NCBI GenBank assembly: GCA_030167865.1 | Contig: JALAGF010002752.1 | Span: 1-58,711 of the forward strand | DNA from: Craspedostauros australis | Taxonomy: Eukaryota | Direction: 5' to 3' | DNA length: 58,711 nucleotides | Shown: positions 1,411 through 25,463 of the stretch, piece after piece | How positions within the stretch are numbered: the first letter of the stretch is position 1 | Layout: each line of letters starts with the position of its first letter | Notes under the pieces: generated by a model | Databases searched by the model: none | The model's input: only the letters and a program-made list of their open reading frames with translations | Told to the model about the DNA's origin: nothing | Position numbers and translations under genes: made by a program

Positions 1411-2316
1411 TCATTTAAACAAAGCCTTCAAGTCATCCGCCCCATCCTCGGTGGCGCTCTGTCGAGGCGTTGTCCCATCACTGTCTGGTTTGTCAGGATC
1501 CGCCCCCCTTCCCAACAGGAGCTTGCAGGTGGGCACGCTCTCGGCGATGACGGCAAGGTGGAGAGGAGTGAATCCATCATCATCGCTGAGGTGGATGTCC
1601 GCGCCGGCATCCAGCAACACCGTCGCGCAGTCCACGTGACCTCTGTCAGCCGCCAGATGCAACGGTGTCTGGCCATAATCATCCAAGGTGTTGGGGTCCT
1701 GATCTCCCTTGTCCAGGAGCATCTTCAGAATTGTAGGATCCTCGTTGCTTGCTGCCATGTGCAACGTCCCCTCTGCGTACACGTCGTCCTCTCCGTTTTC
1801 GCCGTTAATCAATGTGCTTGGTTTGGACCCACCGAATGCCTGCATGAACATCCCATCCTCGTCCTCGTCAGCATCATTCTCGTCATCCCCAACAGCTCCA
1901 GATAGAATATCGGAGGCAAGGGCATTGTACAGCATCGCTGCCACCTGCTTTGGCATATTCCCCAGGTCTTTCCATGCGTTGTGCTTCGCCGTCGCAACGA
2001 GGTTGAACATGGAGGGCTGCGGTTCCTGGCATGGACCCACCGTGATTTGCTTGAACAGACCATAGAGCTGCAGCTGATGCAATTTCTTCATCGATTCCAC
2101 CGTTCGGATCTGCTCCGCCATCTCCCGAAACTGCGCTTCCAGCGCCGTCTTTGGCTCTCCATCGAAGTCACCATCGCGACTGCCGGACTGTCCACGTCTG
2201 CCTTTGCTGGAGCTCCTGCGATAAACGTAGATGGAAATGCCAACGACCGCGATCGCCGATATCACGCTCATGACCAACTGCCGTTGGGATGGTTTCGTTG
2301 GTGAAGCTGCAACCAT
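1411..2316 (-). CDS. Acyl-CoA-binding domain + ankyrin repeat protein with N-terminal membrane anchor
   Basis: Hydrophobic VISAIAVVGISIYVY; ACBP motif LQLYGLFKQITVGPC...AKHNAWKDLGNM; ankyrin repeats GQTPLHLAADRGH and GFTPLHLAVIAES. Single exon, 301 aa. Confidence 0.92.
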   Translation of the reverse strand: MVAASPTKPSQRQLVMSVISAIAVVGISIYVYRRSSSKGRRGQSGSRDGDFDGEPKTALEAQFREMAEQIRTVESMKKLHQLQLYGLFKQITVGPCQEPQPSMFNLVATAKHNAWKDLGNMPKQVAAMLYNALASDILSGAVGDDENDADEDEDGMFMQAFGGSKPSTLINGENGEDDVYAEGTLHMAASNEDPTILKMLLDKGDQDPNTLDDYGQTPLHLAADRGHVDCATVLLDAGADIHLSDDDGFTPLHLAVIAESVPTCKLLLGRGADPDKPDSDGTTPRQSATEDGADDLKALFK

Positions 2317-2793
2317 GATGCTTGTTCCCTTCCTTCCTCTCTTTCTTTGTTGTCCGAGATGCGCTTGTGAGTGGTGATCCTCCTTGTTAGATTGATTCGT
2401 GTTAGCGTTGGTGTTGGCGTTGCGGGCACGTTTGTGTTGGTCTCATCTTTGTCCAAGCGCCGCGGAACATCAGGTTTCCCGATACCGACGAACTCCACAT
2501 GTTTTCGCTTTCTTTGCGGAAGCGCGACTCTTCATGAAATCAATGGAATCGACCCCATCAAACATTGAAAAGACCTACCACTGGCCGTACTCCACAGACG
2601 GGTACAACAAATGCCCAAAGGCAACGCGTTGCATGTCCACCCAGTGCACTTCCCTCCCATCCTGGCGCGCTCTACCATTTGCTCTTTCACTCCTCTTACT
2701 CTACTCTATTCGTTTTTTTGTTTCGCTAATTTTATTCATTTTTATTGCGTGTATGTATTTGTTTCATTCCATGCCCGTGCACGTACTCACTGC

Positions 2794-5700
2794 CTACGGG
2801 GTGCTGCTGCCTCGGCAGGATGGGCTGTCAAGCCAGAACGTTTCGCTTTGGATTGGCAGATTGGCGCGATGCGTGCCATCCTTTCCGCACAACATCTCCC
2901 ATCGCTCATGTGTCTCGGTGATGATGCTCAATGCTTCGGTTGCCGTCTTCGGAATTTCAGATGCCAGAGTGTTCTCGGCCTTGCCGCTGCTGGTCTTGTA
3001 CCTTTTCAACCAGGTCTTGAGCTTGTTGGTGTGACCTGGCTTGACATGGTCCAAGTCATTCGTCGAGTAGATTTTGTGCGCGTCCGGATCCGAGAGGGCA
3101 ATGCAAAGGATCTTGTAATCGGTCTCGCCTTGATCGATGAGCTCGAGCGATCCAATCACGCGGCACGGAGTGATGCTTCCCATCTTCAGTGGGCCAGAAC
3201 CCAGCTCGATGACATCCAGCGGATCATTGTCACCGAAATGACCCTCCTCAGACATCACAGAAGGATCCTCCCAGGTTTGCGAGATGAAACCGTAGTTGAA
3301 GAATGGCGATCCGTACGTGTAGTACCGAGGAGTACCATCGGAGTTGATGTCTTGGCCGATGGCGTTGTGTGGGTAGTCCTTGTTAAGCTCCATCTTGGCT
3401 GCCATGAACATTGGGATCTCGGTCACGAGGTTGATGATGGTTGGGTCGCTGGCGTGCTCCTTTGGTCTCATGGGGACGTCGTGCCAGAAGCTGTTGTACT
3501 TGGTCGACGAGAGATGGAAGTCAGAGCTTCCCATTCGTCCAACGAAGCTGGTCATGGCATCGGCAGGCGGTTCCATGAACTGGCGCGACCACGGGATCCA
3601 ACGGTCCGTCTCGTCGATGTTCTTGTAGTAGTCGACGACCTGCTGCCAGCCCTTTGGCACCATGAAGCCAGCTGGGATGCAGTTGGCTGACAGAAGGTCC
3701 GTTGGGATGTTGTGCAATGGGCATGGCACAGCACCCTGTCTGGCAAGCGCTCTCATCTTGGTTCCCGAAATGCTGATGAAATCATCCATCCTGGACTTGT
3801 CTGGGACCTTCATGACGTTGTCGGTAATGTCGTACATGACCTTCACGAACGACAGCATCTTCATGTCACCGATTCCTGGAGAGTTTTGCAGGACATACCT
3901 TCCATGGTCACCGTCGTAGAGATCGTCATCAGGATGGGCGACAGCGATCGAGGATCCCTTCATGCCAGCCGGGTCTCTTCCCACCACGAAGTAGGAGGCG
4001 CCTGCGCTGCGTCGAGACTTGGCATGGAATTCGACTTCTGTTGGGCCTGCGTAGATCATCGGTGATGGCCAGATTGCCATGACGGTGGTCTCGGGATCCA
4101 AACCGCCTGGATGACTGGTTCCGGCCTCGAGGACGTATTCGTGCTGCTTGACTCGCACATCGAGAGGCACATCATCCGACTTTGTCCATCCACCGAGTGG
4201 GCTCAGCCACAGCACGGGGTTGCGGTAGCCCTGCGACTTGAGGTCTTCTCCGGCCGAGCGCATGAGGTAGGCATGGCCAGCATGTGTCGGGTTTCTCGTC
4301 TGATGGGGCAAAAAACACGCGGGCGCACGAACGTGCGTACATTGATAGGAAAGACAACGAAATAGGAATGACAAAGTCAGCATCAAAGTTTGGGAGTGGG
4401 GAGGAAGTTCGTTGCCGAATGTGACAATGAATACGCGTGATACGTAGGTAGCGGCGCTCCAAAACTCCGCTCCACTCAATCAAATTGAAAGCAACACGGA
4501 ACAGTGCAGTGCAATGAAAATGCGGGTGCAGATTTCTCACTCCACTCCACCCTCCTCCACTTTGATTGTGCGATTACACCACTTCTTACCTGGAAGGCGT
4601 AGACAGTGTCGGCACCCTTCTGCTCGAACTCGTCCATGAGCTCCTTGGCTGTCTTTCTCCACTTGTCCAGCCCGTCGTTGTACCGGATGCGCTCCAACAG
4701 CTCGATCTCTCCTCCGATCAAGAAGTCTCCGCCCATGTAGATGTTGTGAATGTATGGGTGTCCCATGTCGATGACACCGTACGTGCGTGCGACGATCTCT
4801 TCCTTGCGGTTTGGGTAGATCTCGATGTTACGCATGATGGCGAGGGTCTTGCCCATGCGATTGGTCAAGGCGACGTCCAAGAGGCCGGAGTCTTCGATGG
4901 ATTTCTTGGTGAACTCGGTGATGGCCAGCGTGATGGGGACGGACATGGAGACGCGATCGCGTGGTGTGGTTGGTGGGAAGTTGGCAAAGTCAGTGATGGA
5001 ATCCAACCGGTCCTTGCTGCCAGTCACGTTGAATGGGTCCACGAGGATGGAGTTGAAATGGATGGTCTCCAGCAAGGTTCCCTCGCGCATGAATCCCTTC
5101 AATGGTGCGGCCCAGCCTTCTCCGATGGTTTGCAACCAGTTGACATCGATGTCGGTCAAGAGGACCTTGGGAAGCGTCATGGCCTCCGCCTTCTTGGCGG
5201 TCTGGAGATGCTCTGGCACAATAAGATCGATGATCTCGTCACCATCTGGGTTCGGCAGACCTGGCGGGGTGACCTTCGGTGCGCCAATGAGAATGCCATC
5301 GCGTTCCAGCTGACGGAACAATATCTCCACCGACTCCTCGATCTTGAGCTCGTGAGTTTTGAGGATCAGCTCTGGGTGCATTGGTGCCTCGTACGGATCG
5401 TCGATGCAGGTGAAGTGCTTGAGCTCTCCGCTCTCGACACGTGCGTACTGTCCCTTGGGGTCGCGCTTCTTGAGCTCATCCACGGGGACATCCAAAAAGA
5501 CCTCGTAGAATGGAATGCCCTGATCCTCGTGGCGCTTTCGGGCTGCGTCGCGGTCGGCAATGTAGGGGCTGATGAGACCGACGAGGGTGATGACTCCGGA
5601 ATCACTGAAGAGCGCGGCCAACTCCCCCGTGCGCCTGACGGATTCGGCACGGTCTGAGGCAGAGAAGGTCAAGTCGCGGTTGATTCCTGTGCGGAGGTTG

Positions 5701-6873
5701 TCACCGTCCAGACGGTAGACGTGCTTGCCGTGTTCCTTGACGAGCTTGTCCTCGAGTGCCGTGGCGATGGTGGTCTTGCCAGCACCGCTGCAACCGGTCA
5801 TCCAGATCGTGGCGCCCTTCTGTCCAAGCGAGGCATAGCGTTCCTTGGATGGAAGGTGACACGCCGCCTGATTCTCACCGTCGGCAGCCTTGTCGCATTC
5901 GATGATGTGCGGTGGCGTGTTCTGCAAGGCCTTCTCGCGCAGCTGTCCCATCAAATCTCCCGTGTCATTAAGAGTGGGGCAGTCGCAATCTGCTGGCTGT
6001 TGCTGGACCTCTGCCGGCATGGTGTACTGCTGTTGCTGTTGCTGAGGCTGCGTTGGTGGTCCCTGTGGCTGCTGGGGTGCGCTGTTCGTCATCGTGTTGT
6101 ATTGCTGCGGTGTTTGGTTGGCGTTGACCTGCGGTGGAGGGTAAACGTTGGATTGGGTGTTTGGGATCTGGTTGTTGTTCATCATGGGGTACTGCTGGTT
6201 GGTATTCTGCTGTGCCCCGTAGTAGTTGGTGTTAGCATTGGCGTTGGCATTGGCGTTCATGCCGTTGATCATGGGTGCGGTGCCCTCCGGAATTGAGCTG
6301 CCTGTGTGCGGTGGTCCGCTCGCACGCATGGAACCGGCTGCTGGGTTTGACAGACTCTCGGTGTCACCAGCGCGAGACAGGACGAAGACGATTGCCAACA
6401 GGACGCAGATCCCAACGCACATTGGCATGCGTTCATGGACGAGGTTGTCCTCGTCGCGATCATTGCTGCTGCCATCATGAGGGTGTCGGCGGTTCTGGTC
6501 CTGTCATTTTGGGGAGAATGAGGAGAGGCACGATGTCGAAGATGATGTGAGAAAAGAGGACGGCGGCATGTTATTGTTGGTGTCATCCATACACTATCCC
6601 ACGTTTTGCAAGCTGCGCTTTGCAATCCACGCTGTCCGATATCGTAGAGTGATGCGCAAGCGATGTGAAGAGCACATCAAACGCATCAAACCCATCGGAA
6701 TGGTGATGGACTGATGGAAAGATGACTCCTGTCATCGCGAGAGAGGGCGAACCAGCAATCTGCGAAACTGAAGAGACGACCAACGGAGCCATCGGCATGG
6801 CATTCATCCACTTCGCCTCTCGATCGGTCATTCCACTCACCACCGACACCGGAGCGTACGCGTACTTGGCCAT
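2794..6873 (-). CDS. Trifunctional APS kinase - ATP sulfurylase - inorganic pyrophosphatase (PAPS synthase fusion) with type II signal-anchor; exons 6873-6841, 6500-4590, 4299-2794 (about 1149 aa)
   Basis: APS kinase motifs GCSGAGKT, LDGDNLR and RDPKGQY. ATP sulfurylase FQ|TRNPTHAGH (joined across a phase-0 GT-AG intron, 4589-4300) and VVGRDPAG. PPase GDNDPLDV and IDQGETDYKI. First exon MAKYAYAPVSV|gtgagt joins in phase 0 to cag|DQNRR... Confidence 0.93.
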
Positions 6874-7644
6874 GGTGAACAGCGGCGTATCGTTTTGAAG
6901 AGAGTAAAATATCTGTGTGTGATGCTTCTATCTGCTCTATCGATGTGACTACTTGCTTGCTTTCCGCAATCACGTGCGGTACAATGACATCAACAGAATC
7001 TTATGACACGATGAACCGTTGGTGTTGTGGACATGTCCTCCATCTCCTCCATCTCCTCATGTCTGCTTACGATGGAGACGCATTTTTGGCGTTGGTTGGA
7101 TGGAAGGGAGGAGCGATTCTTCGCTCAGATTTTGTTCCTTTCTCAACGCACACGCATGAGCCAAAGAGGAAAAGCCAACCCCGGTCATTGCCATCGACTC
7201 GTGCGAATGAGCGGGAACAAACTCAAGTCTTGGATGAGTACTTATGTTCGAATGAGTCCACAACGGTCTATCGAGTCGAACAATGGATCCAACAGGGACG
7301 CAACTTGACACGGGAACGAAAAGAGATTCGCATCTTGTGTCATCTCTTGTTTGTGGTTCGTCTCGATTCTCTCCCTCCGTTGTTCCACGAGACGCAATCG
7401 TGTTGGAGTGGGTGATGCGCGAGGGGATGGCGAAGATCGCATCTCCATCACCGTTGCCGTCGCCGTTGCCATCGCCGTTGTTGCGAACAAGTGTTGCAAC
7501 TGTCGCTTCCATCCAGGAAGACACAGGAGCAACATCGACATCCACAACGTCCACAAATCCGCAGGATCAGCCCAAGCCACTCGCTCACTCACTCGCTCGC
7601 TCGGCCACACCAACATCAACATCTTGATGAAGCAGAATCAAATC

Positions 7645-9442
7645 ATGGATCTCCTGTCCGCAATCGATCCCAAGATTGCCGCCATCGTCGTGGGCGGATC
7701 ATTCACCGCGATCTTCGTCACCAAGGCCGCTTTCACGCAGTGGGGCAAGTCGGCCTACAAGACCATCAAGGACTCGCCCAAGACGGAGTGCGACATCGAT
7801 GCCTTCGTCGGTGACCGCAACCCCGCCAACGCCTTCAAGATCGCCGCGGCCCATAGGTTCCGCCTGGGATGGCGCAAGGCGCGCACGGAGATCATCCCGC
7901 TCGAATGCACGGAATCGCCGCACTTCGACGGGTTGTATGTGGCGCGCAACATTACGAAGGACGGCGCCAAGGCCAAGCCCCTCGCGGATCTCCTTCCCAA
8001 GAACGGTGACAAGCCCACGGTCATCGTCGCCACCATCCGCATGGGATTCGGACACCACCGCCTGGCCTACTCCGCCTGCTCCTGGTCCTTGGCCAACGGC
8101 TACACCACCATCTTCCATGACATGCTCAACGTCAAGTCCGAGGAAGCCGATCTCATCAAGACTGTGGACGAATTGTACTCCAAGTTCTCGCGCATGGCAT
8201 CTGAGATGGGTGGCACCTTCGAGAAGATGTGGGGATCTGCCATGAAGTCCGGTGATGCGGACGCCCTGCGCATCGCTGCCCTCACTGCCGCACATCTGCA
8301 ACCGTTGCTCCTGGCCTACCCCAAGGATATTCCCATCATCACCACGCATCAGCTGGTGGCATTGACAGCCGCGGCGGTTGGTTTCACCAACGTCGTCAAC
8401 CTCGTGGTGGACAACTACCCGCAATGGTGAGCATTGGCTGTGCTTGAGTTTGTGTTTGCGTGCGGATTGCATTCCATTCTCCTCCAGAACGCTTGCTTTC
8501 AACACTCTTGCTGATGTTTCAAGTCTCACATGCCGTCGCTCTGCTTGACTCTACTTCATAACATTCCATTGTGCTCTCTTAATAACCACAATGGCCAACA
8601 CAACCACTATGATGTGCAGGTTCCTCGTCGTCCCACGCACTCTCAACCTTTGCCAAGGACCGGTCAACTACCAGAGCTTCCTCAACATGGGCGTGCCAGC
8701 CAACGAGGTTGCGTACGCCGGACATTGGATCGGTCACGAGATGGTTTCCAACATCCCCGCCGACTGCAAGCGTCGTGTGGAGCGTGCCAAGCTTGGATAC
8801 GGCGACTCCAAATCCAGCCAAGCCGCTCGTCGTCTGTTGATCCCGGTCGGTGGCGCAGGCGCGCAGCGCAAGTTCATCATTGGTCTCATCGCCAAGCTGG
8901 AGACGCTGGTCAAGAACGGACGTGTCCAGCTCCTGCTCAACGCTGGAGATCATGTGCACATGAAATCTGCCTTCGTCGGAGTCCTGGAGGAATGCAAGCT
9001 GGATTACGATCTCATCACCACCACGCAGGGCGTGTACGACTTCCAGAAGAAGCTGCTGAATTCCTCCACGGCAGAACCGGCCAAGGCCGTGACGCTGTTT
9101 GCCTTCGACGAGTACTTCCCTGCCGTTGCCACCACCGACATCCTCTGCCGCGTTGCCGATGTCCTGACATGCAAACCAAGCGAACTGGCATTCTACCCCG
9201 TCCCAAAGCTGCACATCCGCCGTGTTGGAGACCACGAGGCCGACTCGGCACGCCGGTCCGCAGAGCTTGGCGATGGCAGTCTGGAGGCGCGCGAATTGGA
9301 CGATGCGATGGCGAATGTGAAGCTCTTCCTGGATTCACCCGACTGGCTCGTACAAATGAACGAATCCATCATCGAGAACAACACCATCGGCATCTACGAA
9401 GGCTGCAAGAGAGCAGTGTCGTTCGCCGTTGAAAAGAAGTGA
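7645..9442 (+). CDS. GT-B fold glycosyltransferase-like protein (MGDG-synthase/MurG-like features); exons 7645-8426, 8620-9442 (about 534 aa)
   Basis: TIRMGFGHHRLA (GxGH acceptor loop), LIPVGGAGAQ, DVLTCKPSELAFYPVPKLHIRRVGDHE. Intron gtgagc...tgcag splits a Trp codon to give DNYPQW-FLVVP. N-terminal hydrophobic segment. Confidence 0.75.
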
Positions 9443-12910: not shown

Positions 12911-13907
12911 GTGCAGCGCAGCAGCGCCTTGTCGTGGTTCTTCCCCGTTGCCGACAAGAGCACCCTGTGCCTTGTTGACACCAAACACAGAGCGTGCCCA
13001 ATCATGCGTCGTTCCTGTTCCTGTTGTGGTGGTGGCGTTGACACTGCTGTTGGGTCTCCCCGGTTCGTGCGCAGCGGTTCCGTGTTGTTGCAGTTGACGT
13101 ACGAGGATGGACGACTCGATTCCTTGACAAGCATTTTAGCCGTGACCAATCGTACCCAAACGCAACGTCGACGATCGACATTGGTGGCCGCCAGTTTTGG
13201 AACTGCAACGGACGTTGCGCGTCCATTTCTGCCCTGTCTCTGTCGTCATGATTCTCTCCGAACATCTTCGAAAGAAGAAGACGACCGCTTTTCGCGTCAT
13301 CAAACACAGTTTCGTGCCTTGGCCGGTGTTCTCGTTGGGTCAAGATTCGTTTCTCTTCGCCTTCGAGCACGTGATTCCTGACCATTCGTCATGATTGCGA
13401 AAGTCGCCACACCATTTTCAAGAATTTGCGGTTTGCGTGTTCTGTTTTGTACCGCCTGCTCCAAGCGAAATTGCAAACGTCCCACGAATCAACAGCATTT
13501 GTGCAAAGTCGAAGCATGAATGAATGTCGGGACTCGAGTTTATCCGAGAATCGGGACTGGGTGATGTACAGACATAAAATAGTACAATTAATACAGCAAG
13601 AAAGGCTGGAATGAGACACAAAGGCCTGTCCGTCTTTCATACGTCCGTGTAGGATGTCGACTCCATGGACTCAAGAAGCGGGTTTCGTGGATCTGGAAGA
13701 TCCTTCGCCACAACACACACAAGAGCGCAACCGAACAACAGAGGCTGAGAAGAGAGCATACGACTGGTCGCACCCACAACCATCGCAGTCACCAGGTCTA
13801 CTATCCGTATGACCATCGCACATTCATTGATTCATTGACGCACCCGTCGATTCATCAACCACGACGAACAAGCAAGCAACAGAGGAGAAGAGGATTGTTG
13901 CAGAACC

Positions 13908-16900
13908 ATGGCTTCGAATTGGCACAAGAAGAAGGCCAAGCAGGCCGAGTTCCAGTTCGAGAAGGATCTGCAGGACCGCAGGGATGAGGAGATCGATGTC
14001 TCCGTGCTGGTGAAAGACACGGCCATGGGCGGAGGCGACGAGCAGGTGTTTGAGAAGAAGATGACCAAGGAGGAGAAGAAGGCGCTGGCCAAGGCCAAGC
14101 GCGAAGCCAAGCGCAAGGCCAAAGGAAAGGACAAGGGCAAGGGCAAAGGGAAGGACGGCGAGGAGGAGACCAAATCCGCAGTCGCCGTTCTGGCAGCGGC
14201 CAAGGACACGTTGGAGAGCGGCGGCAAGTCGGGAACCGGCGATGATGGCATCGATCATGACAAGGCGGACCAGCTTGCTTCCGAGGGCACCATCTGCACG
14301 TTCGCCACCAGCCGCAAGGGAGTGGACGCGCGCAGCCGCGACGTCAACGTCACCAACTTCTCCTTGCAGCACATGGGCGCCGTGCTGCTGGATGAATGCG
14401 AGGTCGTTCTCAACCACGGCAATCGCTACGGTCTCATCGGCCGCAACGGATGCGGAAAGTCGACCCTGCTCAAGGCCTTGGGCGCCAGGGCCATTCCCAT
14501 CCCAAATTCCATCGACATATTCTTCTTGAGCGAAGAAATGGAACCCTCCGACATCACCGCCATAGATGCCGTCATGTCCGTCGACGACGAACGTCTCAAG
14601 CTGGAGCAACAGGCCGAGGATCTCAACAGCATGCTTGCCATCGCCGCGGAGGATCCGGACTCTCTGCAAAGCGGGGAGGAGGACGACGTCAAAACATCGG
14701 ACGAATTGTCGGAGGAGATTATGGATGCGCTCAATGCCGTGTACGAACGTCTGGATTTGCTGGATGCCAGCACTGCGGAAGTCCGTGCGCGGTCCATCTT
14801 GGCCGGCCTTGGTTTCACGCATGCCATGCAGTCCAAGGCGACCAAGGACTTCAGCGGTGGCTGGCGTATGCGAGTCTCGCTGGCCCGTGCTCTGTTCATC
14901 CAGCCGATCTGTCTCCTGCTCGATGAGCCGACGAATCACTTGGTGAGTGCAGAACATGTCAGAGTGGCATTCGTGCTGTACAGTACGCTGCTCTACTTAC
15001 GTGCGAACATGCCGTGTGACGAGAATGCTCTCGCCGCATTGGTGTTGACGCTGGCATTGGCGTTGCTATTCAAAGATGTTGCTCTCGTTTTTGTCATGCG
15101 AAATCAATACTACAGTACCAGGTGGATGAATAATAACGATGCCGCAACGAGCGTCAATGGTCACAGTTGGGGCGCTCGCCACTGCCACACTCTTGCATCG
15201 TCAATCCATTCCTCACACTCGCCCATTCTCTGAACTCCACACTCAACTTCTACGAACATGCACAACCGCACAACTGTACATCCCTCTCCCTCTACTCTAC
15301 TCGACTCGACTCTTTGTGTGTTTCACTCATGAAATTCATGACAGGACATGGAGGCAGTCATTTGGCTGGAGGACTACTTGAGTCGCTGGGACAAGATCCT
15401 CCTCTTGGTCAGCCACTCGCAGGATTTCTTGAACAATGTTTGCACGCACATGATCCACTTCACCAACAAGCGCAAGCTGGTGTACTACGATGGAAACTAC
15501 GATCAGTTCGTCAAGACGAAGTCCGAAAAGGAGGAGAATCAATGGAAGCAATACAAATGGGAGCAGGATCAGATCAAGTCCATGAAGGAATACATCGCAC
15601 GATTCGGTCACGGTACGGCCAAGAATGCCAAGCAGGCGCAGTCCAAAGAGAAGGTGCTGGCCAAGATGGTCCGTGCGGGTCTCACGGACAAGCCCGAAGA
15701 GGAGAAGCCGCTGAATTTCAACTTTGCCGATCCGGGACACCTGCCGCCACCCGTCCTGGCCTTCCACGATGTCAAATTTGGATATCCTGGCTGCGAGCCG
15801 CTGTACTCTGGAATCAACCTCGGAGTGGATTTAGATTCGCGCGTTGCCTTGGTGGGACCGAACGGTGCGGGTAAGACCACGCTGGTCAAGCTAATGGCAG
15901 GCGAGCTGCAACCCACGTTGGGTGACATTCGTCCGCACGGACACTTGAAGCTCGGGCGGTTCACGCAACACTTCGTGGACGTCTTGGATTTGGAGCAGAC
16001 GCCGCTGCAATTCTTCGAATCGCAATACCCCGAAGATCCACGCGATGACCAACGCAAGTACCTGGGCCGCTTCGGTGTGTCTGGAAAGATGCAGGTTCGC
16101 AAGATGAAGGAGCTCAGTGATGGACAGCTCAGTCGCGTGGTGTTCGCCAAGCTTGGTCGAGACGTTCCTCACATTCTGCTGCTGGATGAACCCACCAATC
16201 ACTTGGTAAGTGGTATTGAGACTGCTGTGAAAATGTGTCTGTGCGACGGATGAATTGTTGCGGGTGGTGCGTTTGGCTTGCGATTGGCTTGCGATTGTTC
16301 AATATCAATACCCTTTTATACATGGCATGGCATGACATCACATGCATGGTGGTCTATCAGGCACTCACGCTTACATACTCACACTTCACTCGATTGCTGC
16401 TCTCTCTTTCTCTTTCTCGCTTCGGATAATGCTGCTTGATTGTTGATCTTCCGATGATGCCATTGGGGTTTCCCACTTGACTGCAATGGACTGCAATGAA
16501 TCGCAATGGACTGACCTGGACTGCGCAACACAACAACAAATGACACCAACAGGACATGGAAAGTATCGATGCATTGGCCAAGGCAGTGAACGAATTCGAT
16601 GGTGGTATGGTGCTGGTTTCGCATGATATGCGGCTGATTTCGCAGGTGGCCAACGAGATCTGGATCTGCGACGACAAGACCATCACGAAGTACAAGGGCG
16701 ACATCCAGAACTTCAAGATGGACATGAGAGCGCAGATGGGCATCGGCGAGGAGGCCTCCAAGCTCCGTGGTGATGCGAGCGTGAAGGCCACAGACAAGCC
16801 AGCCAAGGCAAAGCCAGAACCCAAGAAGCAAGCCAAGCTGGAGGTCGTGGCGCCAAAGCCAGCACTCACGGAAATCAAGGAAGAGCCAAAGCCGACCCCA

Positions 16901-22661: not shown

Positions 22662-23864
22662 CTACTTGAGGACCACCATGACCGGAGTGGGTGTTTGGGT
22701 GGTAGCGTGTGTGTTGGTCATTTGATGCTGCTCTGGTGCCGGACACGTTTCCGGAGTTGATGTGGAGTCATTGCAATATGATTGTTGGTACCATTTGACG
22801 GTTCGTCGGATGCCCTCCTCGAAGGATACGGTGGACCTGTATCCCAGCAGCTTGCGTGCCTTGGAGACATCGGCGCATGTGTATGGGACATCACCTGGCT
22901 GGTCTGGTAATATCTGGATGACGGCCTTCTTGCCAACGTGCTTTTGGACGAGGTGGATGAATTCCTTGAGGGATGTGCCGGAGCCCTTGCCCAGGTTGAA
23001 GATCTGGTATGGATGCGGACGGTCGATGGATCGGACGACGCCGTCGACGATATCGTCGATGTAGGTGTAATCACGGCTGGAGGTGCCGTCACCGAACTGC
23101 TGCATCTGCACGCCGCGGCTGACGCGGTCGATGAATTTGAAGGGGGCCATGTCTGGGCGGCCGCGTGGTCCGTAGACCGTGAAGAAGCGGAGGCCGGTGA
23201 TGTTGAGGTTGTAGAGATGGTGGTAGGTGTACGCGAGAAGCTCACACGTCTTCTTGGATGCGGCGTATGGTGAGACTGGGTGGTCGACGGCTTCGTCTTC
23301 CGAGAAGAAGGTGGATTTGGATCCGCCGTAGACGGAGGAAGAGGAAGCGAAGACGAAGTTCTTGACGCCGAATTTGTGAGACAGCTCCATCAGCTGGGTT
23401 GTGCCGCGGATGTTGGAGTGGATGTAGACGAATGGATCCTGGATGGATGGGCGAACACCGGCGCGTGCGGCCATGTGGCACACCCATTCTGGTTGCTCCT
23501 TTTCGAAGAGGTTCGTGACAAACTGCGTGTCGCAGATGTCCCCTCTGTAAATGGCGACGCGGTCGGCGCCGTACTTGTTAAGGAGGAGCTTGAGGTTGGA
23601 TTCCTTGATGTTGAGATCATAATAATCATTTAGCTCATCGACGATGACGACATCGTCGCCGCGTGCGAGGAGGTAATCGGCAACATGGGAGCCGATGAAG
23701 CCGGCTCCTCCAGTGACGAGAACCTTCTTGTAGCCGACGTGTGGTTCGATTGGCTCCTGTTCAGTCCAGGAGCTGGACACCGATAATGTGTCGGAGTGAC
23801 GGTCGGTGCCCTCGATGGTGGAGACGGTCGCGTCGGAATCGGTGTTGTAGTCTTGCTTATTCAT
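22662..23864 (-). CDS. UDP-glucuronate 4-epimerase (extended SDR, GAE/CapI-like)
   Basis: VTGGAGFIG, HMAARAGVRPS, ASSSSVYG, SPYAASKK, LRFFTVYGPRGRPDMA, QPGDVPYTCAD. First in-frame ATG (MNKQDY) taken as start. Confidence 0.93.
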   Translation of the reverse strand: MNKQDYNTDSDATVSTIEGTDRHSDTLSVSSSWTEQEPIEPHVGYKKVLVTGGAGFIGSHVADYLLARGDDVVIVDELNDYYDLNIKESNLKLLLNKYGADRVAIYRGDICDTQFVTNLFEKEQPEWVCHMAARAGVRPSIQDPFVYIHSNIRGTTQLMELSHKFGVKNFVFASSSSVYGGSKSTFFSEDEAVDHPVSPYAASKKTCELLAYTYHHLYNLNITGLRFFTVYGPRGRPDMAPFKFIDRVSRGVQMQQFGDGTSSRDYTYIDDIVDGVVRSIDRPHPYQIFNLGKGSGTSLKEFIHLVQKHVGKKAVIQILPDQPGDVPYTCADVSKARKLLGYRSTVSFEEGIRRTVKWYQQSYCNDSTSTPETCPAPEQHQMTNTHATTQTPTPVMVVLK

Positions 23865-25463
23865 GGTGGATTGTATTTGTGGTGCTGTGGTGTTGGTGTT
23901 GGTGTTGGTGTTGGCGTTGGCGTTGGTATCGATGCTCACGTTTTGTTGTTGTTCGATTTGGTTTTTGGTTTGATTGAAATTGTGAATGTTGGATTGTGAA
24001 TGTTCGATTGTGATTTGTGATTTGCACTTTGCTTCTCTTGAATCTGTGATGTGATGTGTGTGTTGATGTGGGTGTTGACGTGAGTTGAATCGAGTTGGTG
24101 GTTGTGTCTCTTCTCTTTGACCAGCAAAGGGGGTTGCGAACAAGAGGTCGATGTGTTGGGCGATGACAAGGCGAAAAAGTGATGGGTGGCGACCTCAAAT
24201 TACGGTGGTTCTGACGTTGTTTCCTGATGGGCTGGTGAGTTGCGTTCCCACTCCACATTTCTTCGCCGCACGCGCCATCGATCCCTTTGCAGGCGGATGA
24301 GAGCACAGGAAGGGAACCTCCGCAAGATTCGTGTTTGAGGTGGTCGAGAGGTCTAGAATTGTGAGCGCTGATGTGGATTTTCTGGGCACTGGACAATCCG
24401 TGCACCTCCTCGACCAATCAGAAATCGCCGTGAGTAAAAGATACCATTCGACTCTCATCGCTGGAAGCCTCTTGGTCAGACAAGAACATCGTCGAACGTG
24501 GTCGACTTGGTCCATCGCTCACACACTTCGCATGATGACGTCACATGTGATGTGAGTTGGCGGAAGCTTGGCTCAGACAAACTGCCAATGACAAATCATC
24601 GAAACAAACCTCGCCGTGCTGGTTCTGAAACGTGTTCGCCATGAACATGAGCCAACGGTCATCCTCGACCACAACGCAGTTTGGTAACAACACATGCCTC
24701 GCGCACACCCCGAAGATACGGGAACCGGACATCGCGGACAACGCAGAACCACAGAGACAAACGACCTCGCAACTCGTGGCGGCACCAATCTCAACACGTG
24801 GATCTGTCGTACAGGTAGAACCAGTACCATGATGTACCTGCGTACCGCACGAGGTCGCATGCGAACTCGTACGAACAAGAGCGAAAACAAATGAAAGATT
24901 CCGTCGTGGTTGGAGAAGGAATCGCTCCTGAGCAACATGACGTGAGGCAACGTGACACAGTCATCCCGCTCGTGCAGTGACGCAGAACTCGTGGTTCGTG
25001 TTGTTCGCAGTTCGGAACGGAACGAGCACAGACAGATGAGAAAACGGGATTATGCACGACTTGACAATAGTAGACTTCTTGAGTGGTCGGTGTGGTCGTA
25101 CGCGTATGACGGACAGATGATGGCGAATTAAACTAGACTAAACTGATAAGCCTAACATCCCCAAGATCGTCCCAACCTCAGAAACGAAAATCAAGCACAA
25201 GATCGTGACATGTTCGTGGACGGAGGCGTCAGGAAACAAAGAGGCAGAGCCACAACAAGGCTGGGAGGCATGCACAGATCGGCAGTGCAGTTGAAGTAGT
25301 TCCATTGCTCCACGATCTACTCCACCCCGCTCTACTCTACTCTGCTCTGCTCTACTCTACTCTACTGTACTCTGCAGTATCCACACAAGCACAAGCACGA
25401 ATTTGAGTAGCTCGTACGCGGAGGAGACAGAGAGAAGAGAGGGACAGAGAGAGAGCAAGGAGG

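Follow-up and report, generated by a model that had tools for sequence, protein, structure and literature searches.

PAPS (3'-phosphoadenosine 5'-phosphosulfate), the universal donor of sulfate, is classically made in the cytosol, the nucleus or the plastid, and dedicated transporters carry it into the Golgi. PAPST1/2 (SLC35B2/B3) import cytosolic PAPS in this way for the lumenal sulfotransferases. A gene of the diatom Craspedostauros australis raises the question of whether PAPS could also be made inside the secretory lumen itself. The gene lies on contig JALAGF010002752.1 (assembly GCA_030167865.1), in a stretch of 58,711 nucleotides (positions 1 to 58,711 of the forward strand) that was analysed as a whole and is called the window below. 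The sequence and its open reading frames place the gene on the minus strand at 6873..2794, with three exons and a product of 1149 amino acids (aa). The product belongs to the known triple fusion of adenosine 5'-phosphosulfate (APS) kinase, ATP sulfurylase (ATPS) and inorganic pyrophosphatase (PPase). A tail, a helix and a stem stand in front of the catalytic part, and this architecture is real and strongly conserved. As judged from sequence comparison, the protein is probably a type II signal-anchor form of the stramenopile APS kinase/ATP sulfurylase/pyrophosphatase fusion.

The 5' part of the gene, which encodes the region in front of the enzymes, is made up as follows.

6841..6873, minus strand: exon 1, 33 nt, encoding the peptide MAKYAYAPVSV (ATG plus 10 codons) with a YxxΦ-like motif, Y6-A-P-V9
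6501..6840, minus strand: intron 1, 340 nt, GTGAGT...CAG with the AG at 6502-6501, phase 0
4590..6500, minus strand: exon 2, 637 codons, in phase with exon 1
6429..6500, minus strand: rest of the polar tail (residues 12-35), variable except for an acidic cluster and a juxtamembrane ..LVHER
6375..6428, minus strand: single hydrophobic helix M36-S53 (MPMCVGICVLLAIVFVLS), flanked by R35 and R54, a putative signal anchor
5964..6374, minus strand: stem (residues 54-190), Q/N/P/T-rich and of low complexity, with C-x-C-P near its end (C183, C185)

A sequence-only reading of this DNA had proposed one hydrophobic helix, an N/Q/P-rich stem and then the catalytic part, and hydropathy, composition, AlphaFold2 and Pfam confirm this layout. 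The region M36-S53 holds the sole 19-residue segment with a Kyte-Doolittle mean of at least 1.6 in the 1149 aa. The mean peaks at 2.34 over residues 38-56, and the runner-up, at 1.58, is a buried core strand of the APS kinase. AlphaFold2, run on a 121-sequence alignment and read out as confidence and secondary structure, puts a helix over the hydrophobic segment (exon-2 residues 13-44; 10-residue block means of 65-84). Its predicted local distance difference test score (pLDDT) falls below 50 over residues 56-180, after which the kinase and PUA parts are folded. The disordered, Q/N/P-rich stem is about 135 aa long, with Q 25, N 21 and P 19 in the 149 aa sampled (residues 57-205). Residues 1-35 are polar, and the net charge over residues 1-37 is -2; the polar tail, put earlier at about 37 aa, is there at a length of 35 aa (M1-R35). 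A single helix that follows a short polar tail and precedes a variable, unstructured stem is the layout of a signal anchor.

Two further observations concern this region. Within the stem, window positions 6235-6275 (minus strand) read as alternating Asn and Ala codons (NANANANAN), a microsatellite-like tract that is consistent with stem evolution through repeat expansion. An acidic dileucine motif before the helix was considered as a candidate and dropped, the pattern not being strict among the aligned orthologues.

The start ATG (6873-6871) stands in an ACCATGG context and is the first past the in-frame stop at 6930-6928. The 33-nt exon encoding MAKYAYAPVSV, its gtgagt donor at 6840 and the in-phase acceptor at 6501 had all been named from the letters of the sequence, and all match it. 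Without splicing, a stop at 6583 ends the exon-1 frame, and the frame of exon 2 is blocked immediately upstream of 6503. Because both frames are closed if unspliced, either the intron-1 splice or an internal start at M36 or M38 is required. Proteins derived from MMETSP transcripts begin with M-A/P-K/R-Y-A/S-Y-A-P-L/V-S fused directly to the tail; examples come from Chaetoceros debilis (P0164), Grammatophora oceanica (P0182) and Thalassionema nitzschioides (P0188), and the same N-terminus is found in the P0205 cluster, which has Coscinodiscus wailesii among its members. Orthologues are colinear with the spliced product across both intron junctions, including, for intron 1, P0183 and MMETSP transcript-derived proteins. 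Two genomic models, P0037 and P0199, keep the 10-11 residues of exon 1 and then read through an unrelated intron. Their read-through shows that it is the exon, and not the intron, that is conserved. The start codon thus appears to lie upstream of the helix, a placement supported by the orthologous transcript-derived proteins.

Conservation within diatoms was followed in the best 120 homologues (350-1115 aa), whose listed named members are all diatoms. More than 100 diatom members share 60-79% identity with the window protein over exon 2. A first helix pattern was too strict, matching 95 of the 120 (with a median of 34 residues upstream of the helix core), and was replaced by a hydropathy criterion. 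By that criterion 118 of the 120 carry the helix or start within it, and the remaining two are models truncated downstream of the helix. Forty-three of the 118 start with the exon-1 motif M..Y.YxP[LVI] and 29 with other upstream sequence; in the other 46 the model opens at the helix or inside it, the gene call having taken the internal Met as its start. Because the helix recurs in nearly every one of these homologues, the layout is far beyond chance, and the orthologue alignment that had been suggested as a check on the anchor bears it out. The 19 orthologues with complete N-termini show how unevenly the protein is constrained. In mean pairwise identity the exon-1 peptide stands at 0.84, residues 12-34 at 0.21, the helix with its flanks at 0.75 and the stem at 0.13; the kinase, the sulfurylase and the pyrophosphatase reach 0.86, 0.83 and 0.64, respectively.

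These figures bear on the possibility that the main product has no anchor at all. Transcription or translation could start downstream, for instance at a Met in the stem, or a cleavage of the signal-peptidase kind could release the enzyme, giving a soluble protein of the cytosol or the lumen, a secreted one, or dual isoforms. In-frame Met codons do occur in the stem and could yield a shorter cytosolic isoform. The database models P0359 (990 aa), P0353 (514 aa) and P0162 start in or after the stem, and the residues S-R-A-G behind the helix, divided between A and G, are similar to a small-residue cleavage site. In run X1, presumed to be RNA, the sole contig is limited to 2709..3554, away from the 5' end; it shows no differences, and nothing lies over the 5' junction. 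The simplest account of the short models, however, is that gene calls on small contigs came out truncated, and transcript-derived orthologues marked 'type:complete' (P0249, P0304 and P0318) begin at the exon-1 motif. Purifying selection has kept the exon-1 peptide at 84% identity and the helix at 75% beside a stem at 13%, which shows that the anchored form is in use. An anchor-less main product appears very improbable.

The layout extends well beyond diatoms. A polar tail, a single helix and a variable stem precede the kinase in the brown alga Cladosiphon okamuranus (P0208), the pelagophyte Chrysoreinhardia (P0212), the chlorarachniophyte Amorphochlora amoebiformis (P0020), the oomycete Albugo laibachii (P0215, within an over-long model) and the diplonemids Diplonema papillatum (P0015), Flectonema neradi (P0216) and Lacrimia lanifica (P0217), and also in many environmental sequences. 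Helix-free full-length models exist as well (P0210, P0211 and P0023), and so does a shorter one (P0010). Stramenopile homologues carry Y-x-x-[VLI] within their first 10 residues, followed by acidic residues. The motif takes the forms YAPL/V, YAKV, YAKL, YSRV, YGRV, YSPL, YASV and YLPI, with YRPV in Albugo.

Several of these homologues have peculiarities of their own. The APS-kinase-like domain of the chlorarachniophyte-type proteins P0020, P0218 and P0023 has a degenerate P-loop, with no GxxGxGK[ST]; judging by this sequence, the N-terminal kinase domain may be inactive or regulatory, as in fungal ATP sulfurylase. P0210, P0211 and P0214 share a C-terminal extension that ends in a four-Cys motif, C..C....CV..CV.KYGRR; P0214 has an N-terminal Y-S-R-V motif and the helix, and the P0210 and P0211 models are without a helix. 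The Albugo laibachii entry of the P0215 cluster is 1964 aa long and contains a carboxypeptidase domain (PF00246) besides the fusion, and near-identical entries of 1926-1986 aa number at least 28 in the listed part of the cluster. The probable explanation is a merged gene model for which many alternative predictions exist.

The breadth of the family also speaks to a plastid location, in which the helix would serve as the signal peptide within a bipartite presequence of the plastid or periplastidial type and the enzyme would act in the plastid. The cleavage site of such a presequence in diatoms is an ASAFAP-type motif with an aromatic residue at +1, and plastid import, in work attributed to Kilian and Kroth and to Gruber and colleagues, reportedly needs an aromatic residue or Leu at this position. 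An S/T/A/P-rich region does lie behind the helix in many orthologues, and Patron et al. 2008 (PMC2275785, in the parts of the paper available) interpreted the N-terminus of the T. pseudonana protein as a signal peptide together with a transit-like region. However, F, W or Y is found within 6 residues past the helix in 0 of 33 orthologues. The helix begins at residue 36, behind a conserved tail of 35-60 aa, and not at the extreme N-terminus; acidic residues follow it immediately, and the stems are Q/N-rich and up to 200 aa long. The tail and helix are also present in aplastidic oomycetes (Albugo) and in three diplonemids. The plastid call itself is to 'be taken with care' according to the available portion of Prioretti et al. 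2014 (PMC4220642). Because the helix occurs in organisms without plastids and no aromatic residue follows it in the 33 orthologues, the case for the plastid is weak, and this is the least probable of the readings considered here. Even taken jointly, plastid targeting and anchor-less products are quite improbable.

The question then becomes which side of the membrane the enzymes face, and here the catalytic part comes into play. Its features are as follows.

5820..5963, minus strand: pre-kinase module (residues 191-238), conserved, with the Cys pair C213/C225 (..IIEC..x11..CH..)
5361..5819, minus strand: APS kinase, Pfam PF01583, E 3.2e-55, profile 1-151 of 152, with the P-loop GCSGAGKTT
4689..5252, minus strand: PUA-like domain (PUA_2) of ATP sulfurylase, Pfam PF14306, E 8.6e-33, with a clade-specific stretch of about 30 aa
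5022..5030, minus strand: sequon N502-V-T, in that clade-specific stretch
4300..4589, minus strand: intron 2, 290 nt, GTAAGA...CAG, which splits the ATP sulfurylase catalytic domain at ..YAFQ / TRNPTHAGH..
3721..4299, minus strand: ATP sulfurylase catalytic domain, Pfam PF01747, E 1.8e-38, with TRNPTHAGH and VGRDPAG
3679..3723, minus strand: Cys-x13-Cys loop C841..C855, inside a 16-aa insertion that soybean ATPS and human PAPSS2 lack
2896..3426, minus strand: family I inorganic pyrophosphatase, Pfam PF00719, E 1.3e-35, sharing its open frame with ATPS (exon 3)
2794..2895, minus strand: C-terminal tail with the diatom-specific Cys pair C1119/C1143, then the stop codon (2796..2794) at which exon 3 ends

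The Pfam matches APS_kinase, PUA_2, ATP-sulfurylase and Pyrophosphatase follow one another in the order expected of the fusion that had been proposed; intron 2, a GT-AG intron, had gone unmentioned. GCSGAGKTT fits the P-loop consensus, and TRNPTHAGH and VGRDPAG contain the ATP sulfurylase motifs RNPxHxGH and GRDPAG. Colinear homologues of 1000-1300 aa with a pyrophosphatase number 41 in the alignment. The best solved match for the APS kinase part is human PAPSS1 (1x6v; E 2e-88 for exon 2), and those for the sulfurylase are soybean ATPS (4maf) and human PAPSS2 (7fh3; E 2.8e-54 for exon 3). Matches for the pyrophosphatase include eukaryotic soluble and acidocalcisomal PPases. That such fusions were already known also holds: the available parts of two papers describe them for diatoms, haptophytes and oomycetes (PMC2275785, PMC4220642), and the window protein shares the three domains and their order with the stramenopile and haptophyte proteins.

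Metazoan PAPSS1 and PAPSS2 (1x6v, 7fh3) likewise carry APS kinase and then ATP sulfurylase on one chain, and they are cytosolic or nuclear (PMC2275785, as far as the paper was available). Unlike the window protein, they have no membrane helix, stem or PPase. Also missing from them are the 16-aa insertion with Cys-x13-Cys, the sequon-bearing stretch (about 30 aa) and the Cys module ahead of the kinase; the alignment to human PAPSS1 begins only at exon-2 residue 226, leaving that module unmatched.

The charges that flank the helix provide one indication of orientation. Fifteen-residue flanks were compared in 22 hand-picked eukaryotic homologues from outside the diatoms, a set that replaced an earlier 'other' group in which truncated diatom models and a few unrelated bacterial-type rows had also been held; fragments without an N-terminus, the helix-less P0210 and P0211, and P0023 and P0010 were left out. 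The N-terminal flank is the more positive in 19 of the 22, with two ties and one reversed. Flectonema, Lacrimia, P0004 and P0124 have their hydrophobic segment only 3-6 residues from a positively charged N-terminus, much like a signal peptide. An N-terminus of this kind places the protein downstream of it in the lumen.

Cysteines provide a second indication. Outside the helix, those of the window protein fall into sequence-neighbour pairs: the four named in the earlier reading are all present, and C248/C376 and C1027/C1047 add two more. Among the 42 full-length homologues, C841 and C855 are kept in every one, and the pairs 213/225, 248/376, 1027/1047 and 1119/1143 are never split, each being either complete or absent in every sequence. 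All of 121 diatom sequences keep C213 and C225 (C202 and C214 in exon-2 numbering) as well as C248 and C376, and the number of Cys between the helix and the P-loop is even in 104 of 116 orthologues. Cys/Pro-rich stems are found in several homologues (P0004, P0054, P0197 and P0216). As a side observation, the stems of P0004, P0054, P0124, P0197 and P0216 contain repeated Cys-Pro units (CPxxxCP..) that recall disulfide-linked hinge regions.

A third indication comes from N-glycosylation sequons, for which NDT and NVT had been put forward. The NVT at N502 (DPFN[VL]T) is the only conserved N-x-S/T, occurring in 37 of the 42 full-length homologues (30/30 diatom, 7/12 other). NDT (N189) is present in the window protein but is not conserved; like NQT (N139), it appears in 1 of 30 diatom sequences, the window itself counted, and in 0 of the 12 others. 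The alignment to human PAPSS1 has a gap at exon-2 residues 486-517, and pLDDT is below 50 over exon-2 residues 469-501 and 511-520. Since the site is both unaligned to PAPSS1 and modelled at such low confidence, N502 is likely to sit in an exposed loop.

Weighed together, these comparisons make a lumenal orientation of the catalytic domains the best-supported reading, and a reasonably probable one. Several points weigh against it. Net charge difference across 19 distinct diatom-like helices favors an N-in orientation in 2, is zero in 4 and is opposite in 13, and it leans this way because an acidic cluster precedes the helix; K+R counted alone gives 10 for N-in, 3 ties and 6 against. Of 116 orthologues, 38 have an even and 78 an odd number of Cys behind the helix, so that Cys parity, tried as a disulfide test, failed to support a fully paired set. 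Most orthologues have a 13th Cys where the window protein has Ala, and full pairing is therefore true of the window protein and not of the family. Each pair may have been gained or lost just once, in the ancestor of the diatoms, which leaves the co-occurrence of the pairs statistically weak. C248 sits inside the kinase P-loop, where a disulfide might hinder catalysis. The lumenal reading also assumes a supply of ATP, sulfate and Mg2+ in the lumen and PPase activity at Golgi pH. To these are added the in-frame Met codons of the stem, the silence of run X1 over the 5' junction and the published localization calls, which are cytosolic or, for T. pseudonana, plastidial (PMC2275785, PMC4220642, both in part).

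The main alternative that these points serve is a tether facing the cytosol. The helix would be a reverse signal anchor, like that of cytochrome P450 or synaptotagmin, or would otherwise hold the enzymes on the cytosolic face of the ER (endoplasmic reticulum), the Golgi or the plastid-ER, and PAPS would be made beside the PAPS transporter. The more negative N-flank of 13 of the 19 diatom-like helices, the odd Cys count of 78 of the 116 orthologues and the Cys in the P-loop all fit this arrangement, and the cytosol is rich in ATP and Mg2+. PAPS synthesis is moreover assumed to be cytosolic in the available part of PMC4220642. The tether would, however, leave the conserved sequon and the insertion with its invariant Cys-x13-Cys unexplained, and the helix is trailed by one Arg and then acidic residues, with no positive cluster. 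It is also at odds with the N-side positive charge in 19 of the 22 non-diatom homologues and with the signal-peptide-like N-termini of the diplonemid forms, P0004 and P0124. Finally, it would place the N-terminal YxxΦ-like motif in the lumen, and we know of no reader for YxxΦ motifs there; the YxxΦ and acidic residues of the tail resemble adaptor-binding sorting signals, which are active in the cytosol. A cytosol-facing tether is accordingly regarded as unlikely. The original proposal of lumenal PAPS synthesis thus stands as regards the architecture, and comparison across the family favors its orientation, while the diatom charges and the odd Cys parity do not.

With the catalytic domains facing the lumen, the enzyme would work as follows. 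The helix M36-S53 would insert in the ER membrane, leaving the 35-aa tail in the cytosol and turning the stem and the three catalytic domains toward the secretory or endomembrane lumen. There, ATP sulfurylase would convert sulfate and ATP to APS and pyrophosphate, the fused PPase would clear the pyrophosphate, and APS kinase would form PAPS to be consumed locally by lumenal sulfotransferases. The tail motifs, namely the N-terminal Y-A-P-V/L with its acidic residues and the juxtamembrane acidic cluster, would act as cytosolic sorting signals and set the compartment, whether Golgi, trans-Golgi network (TGN) or endosomal. We infer the orientation, compartment, glycosylation, disulfides and sorting function alike. 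A bolder version holds that lumenal PAPS synthesis is old and widespread, spanning diatoms, brown algae, pelagophytes, oomycetes, chlorarachniophytes and diplonemids, that it runs on imported ATP and sulfate with no PAPS transporter route, and that the YxxΦ-acidic tail sorts the enzyme through adaptor complexes to the TGN or endosome. This broader claim is tentative, falling slightly short of an even chance.

The layout of short tail, helix, stem and catalytic part is the same as that of the type II Golgi transferases and sulfotransferases (TPST and the carbohydrate sulfotransferases), a likeness of layout only and not of sequence. The Golgi sulfotransferases use PAPS imported from the cytosol, whereas the window enzyme would make it. 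The PAPST1/2 route serves the same end, PAPS for the lumen, and the window enzyme would need import of ATP and sulfate instead. The nearest precedent for organelle-confined PAPS synthesis outside the cytosol and plastid is the mitosome of Entamoeba histolytica (PMC3149026, PMC6801973); that is a different organelle, and the available parts of these papers report no membrane-anchored fusion.

Earlier work on the triple fusion took a different view of its location. The fused PPase has been seen as pulling the sulfurylase step (PMC2275785, PMC4220642), and the diatom and haptophyte fusions other than that of T. pseudonana have been called cytosolic (Prioretti et al. 2014, PMC4220642). The word 'transmembrane' occurs 0 times in these two papers, and in their available parts a conserved tail, helix and stem and a lumenal reading go unmentioned. 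Within the full-text literature covered, as far as it was available, no membrane-anchored or lumenal PAPS synthase is proposed; Bradley et al. 2009 and Bromke et al. 2013 may treat the N-terminus. The conserved signal-anchor architecture of the triple fusion therefore appears to be undescribed in the portion of the literature covered.

The neighbors of the gene are ordinary nuclear genes, encoding an ACBP-ankyrin protein, a DUF6937 protein, an ABCF-type ATPase, an NAD-dependent epimerase, NFACT, a kinase, a methyltransferase and an HSA-domain protein. No sulfur gene is found among the neighbors in the window. The NAD-epimerase gene (22662..24194), taken as an internal control, has no helix and is hence uninformative. 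Adjoining the PAPS synthase gene, an open frame at window 1411-2442 (minus strand) combines an acyl-CoA-binding domain with ankyrin repeats (Pfam ACBP, Ank_2) and has a hydrophobic stretch, ..LVMSVISAIAVVGISIYVY.., upstream of the ACBP domain; from its sequence, the product looks like an ACBD-type membrane protein. On the other side, the divergent neighbor at window 7309-8430 (plus strand) matches DUF6937 (E 3.5e-25) and runs into further open frames to about 9440. The interval from 6874 to about 7630, between the PAPS synthase ATG and this neighbor, may be a shared promoter. Short GGAGATGGAGGA-type repeats lie near 7040-7060, within that interval. Farther away, at window 13839-16253 (plus strand), two adjoining open frames each contain ABC_tran, the second also ABC_tran_Xtn; the pair resembles a single ABCF-type gene that an intron or a frame change has divided.

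If the catalytic domains do face the lumen, there would be a second route to PAPS beside cytosolic synthesis and Golgi import, and the transporter needs of the compartment would shift to ATP and sulfate in and AMP/ADP and phosphate out. A lumenal location would also explain the PPase fusion, a lumen being without the cytosolic pyrophosphatases. The lumenal location is directly testable in transformable diatoms. The published cytosolic and plastidial assignments are corrected at least thus far, in that the enzyme is a conserved membrane protein. The organisms concerned produce sulfated material in abundance, for example the extracellular polymers and silica-associated proteins of diatoms and the fucoidans of brown algae. 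Lumenal PAPS synthesis, if true, would therefore matter for the cycling of carbon and sulfur in the sea and for the engineering of sulfated polysaccharides.

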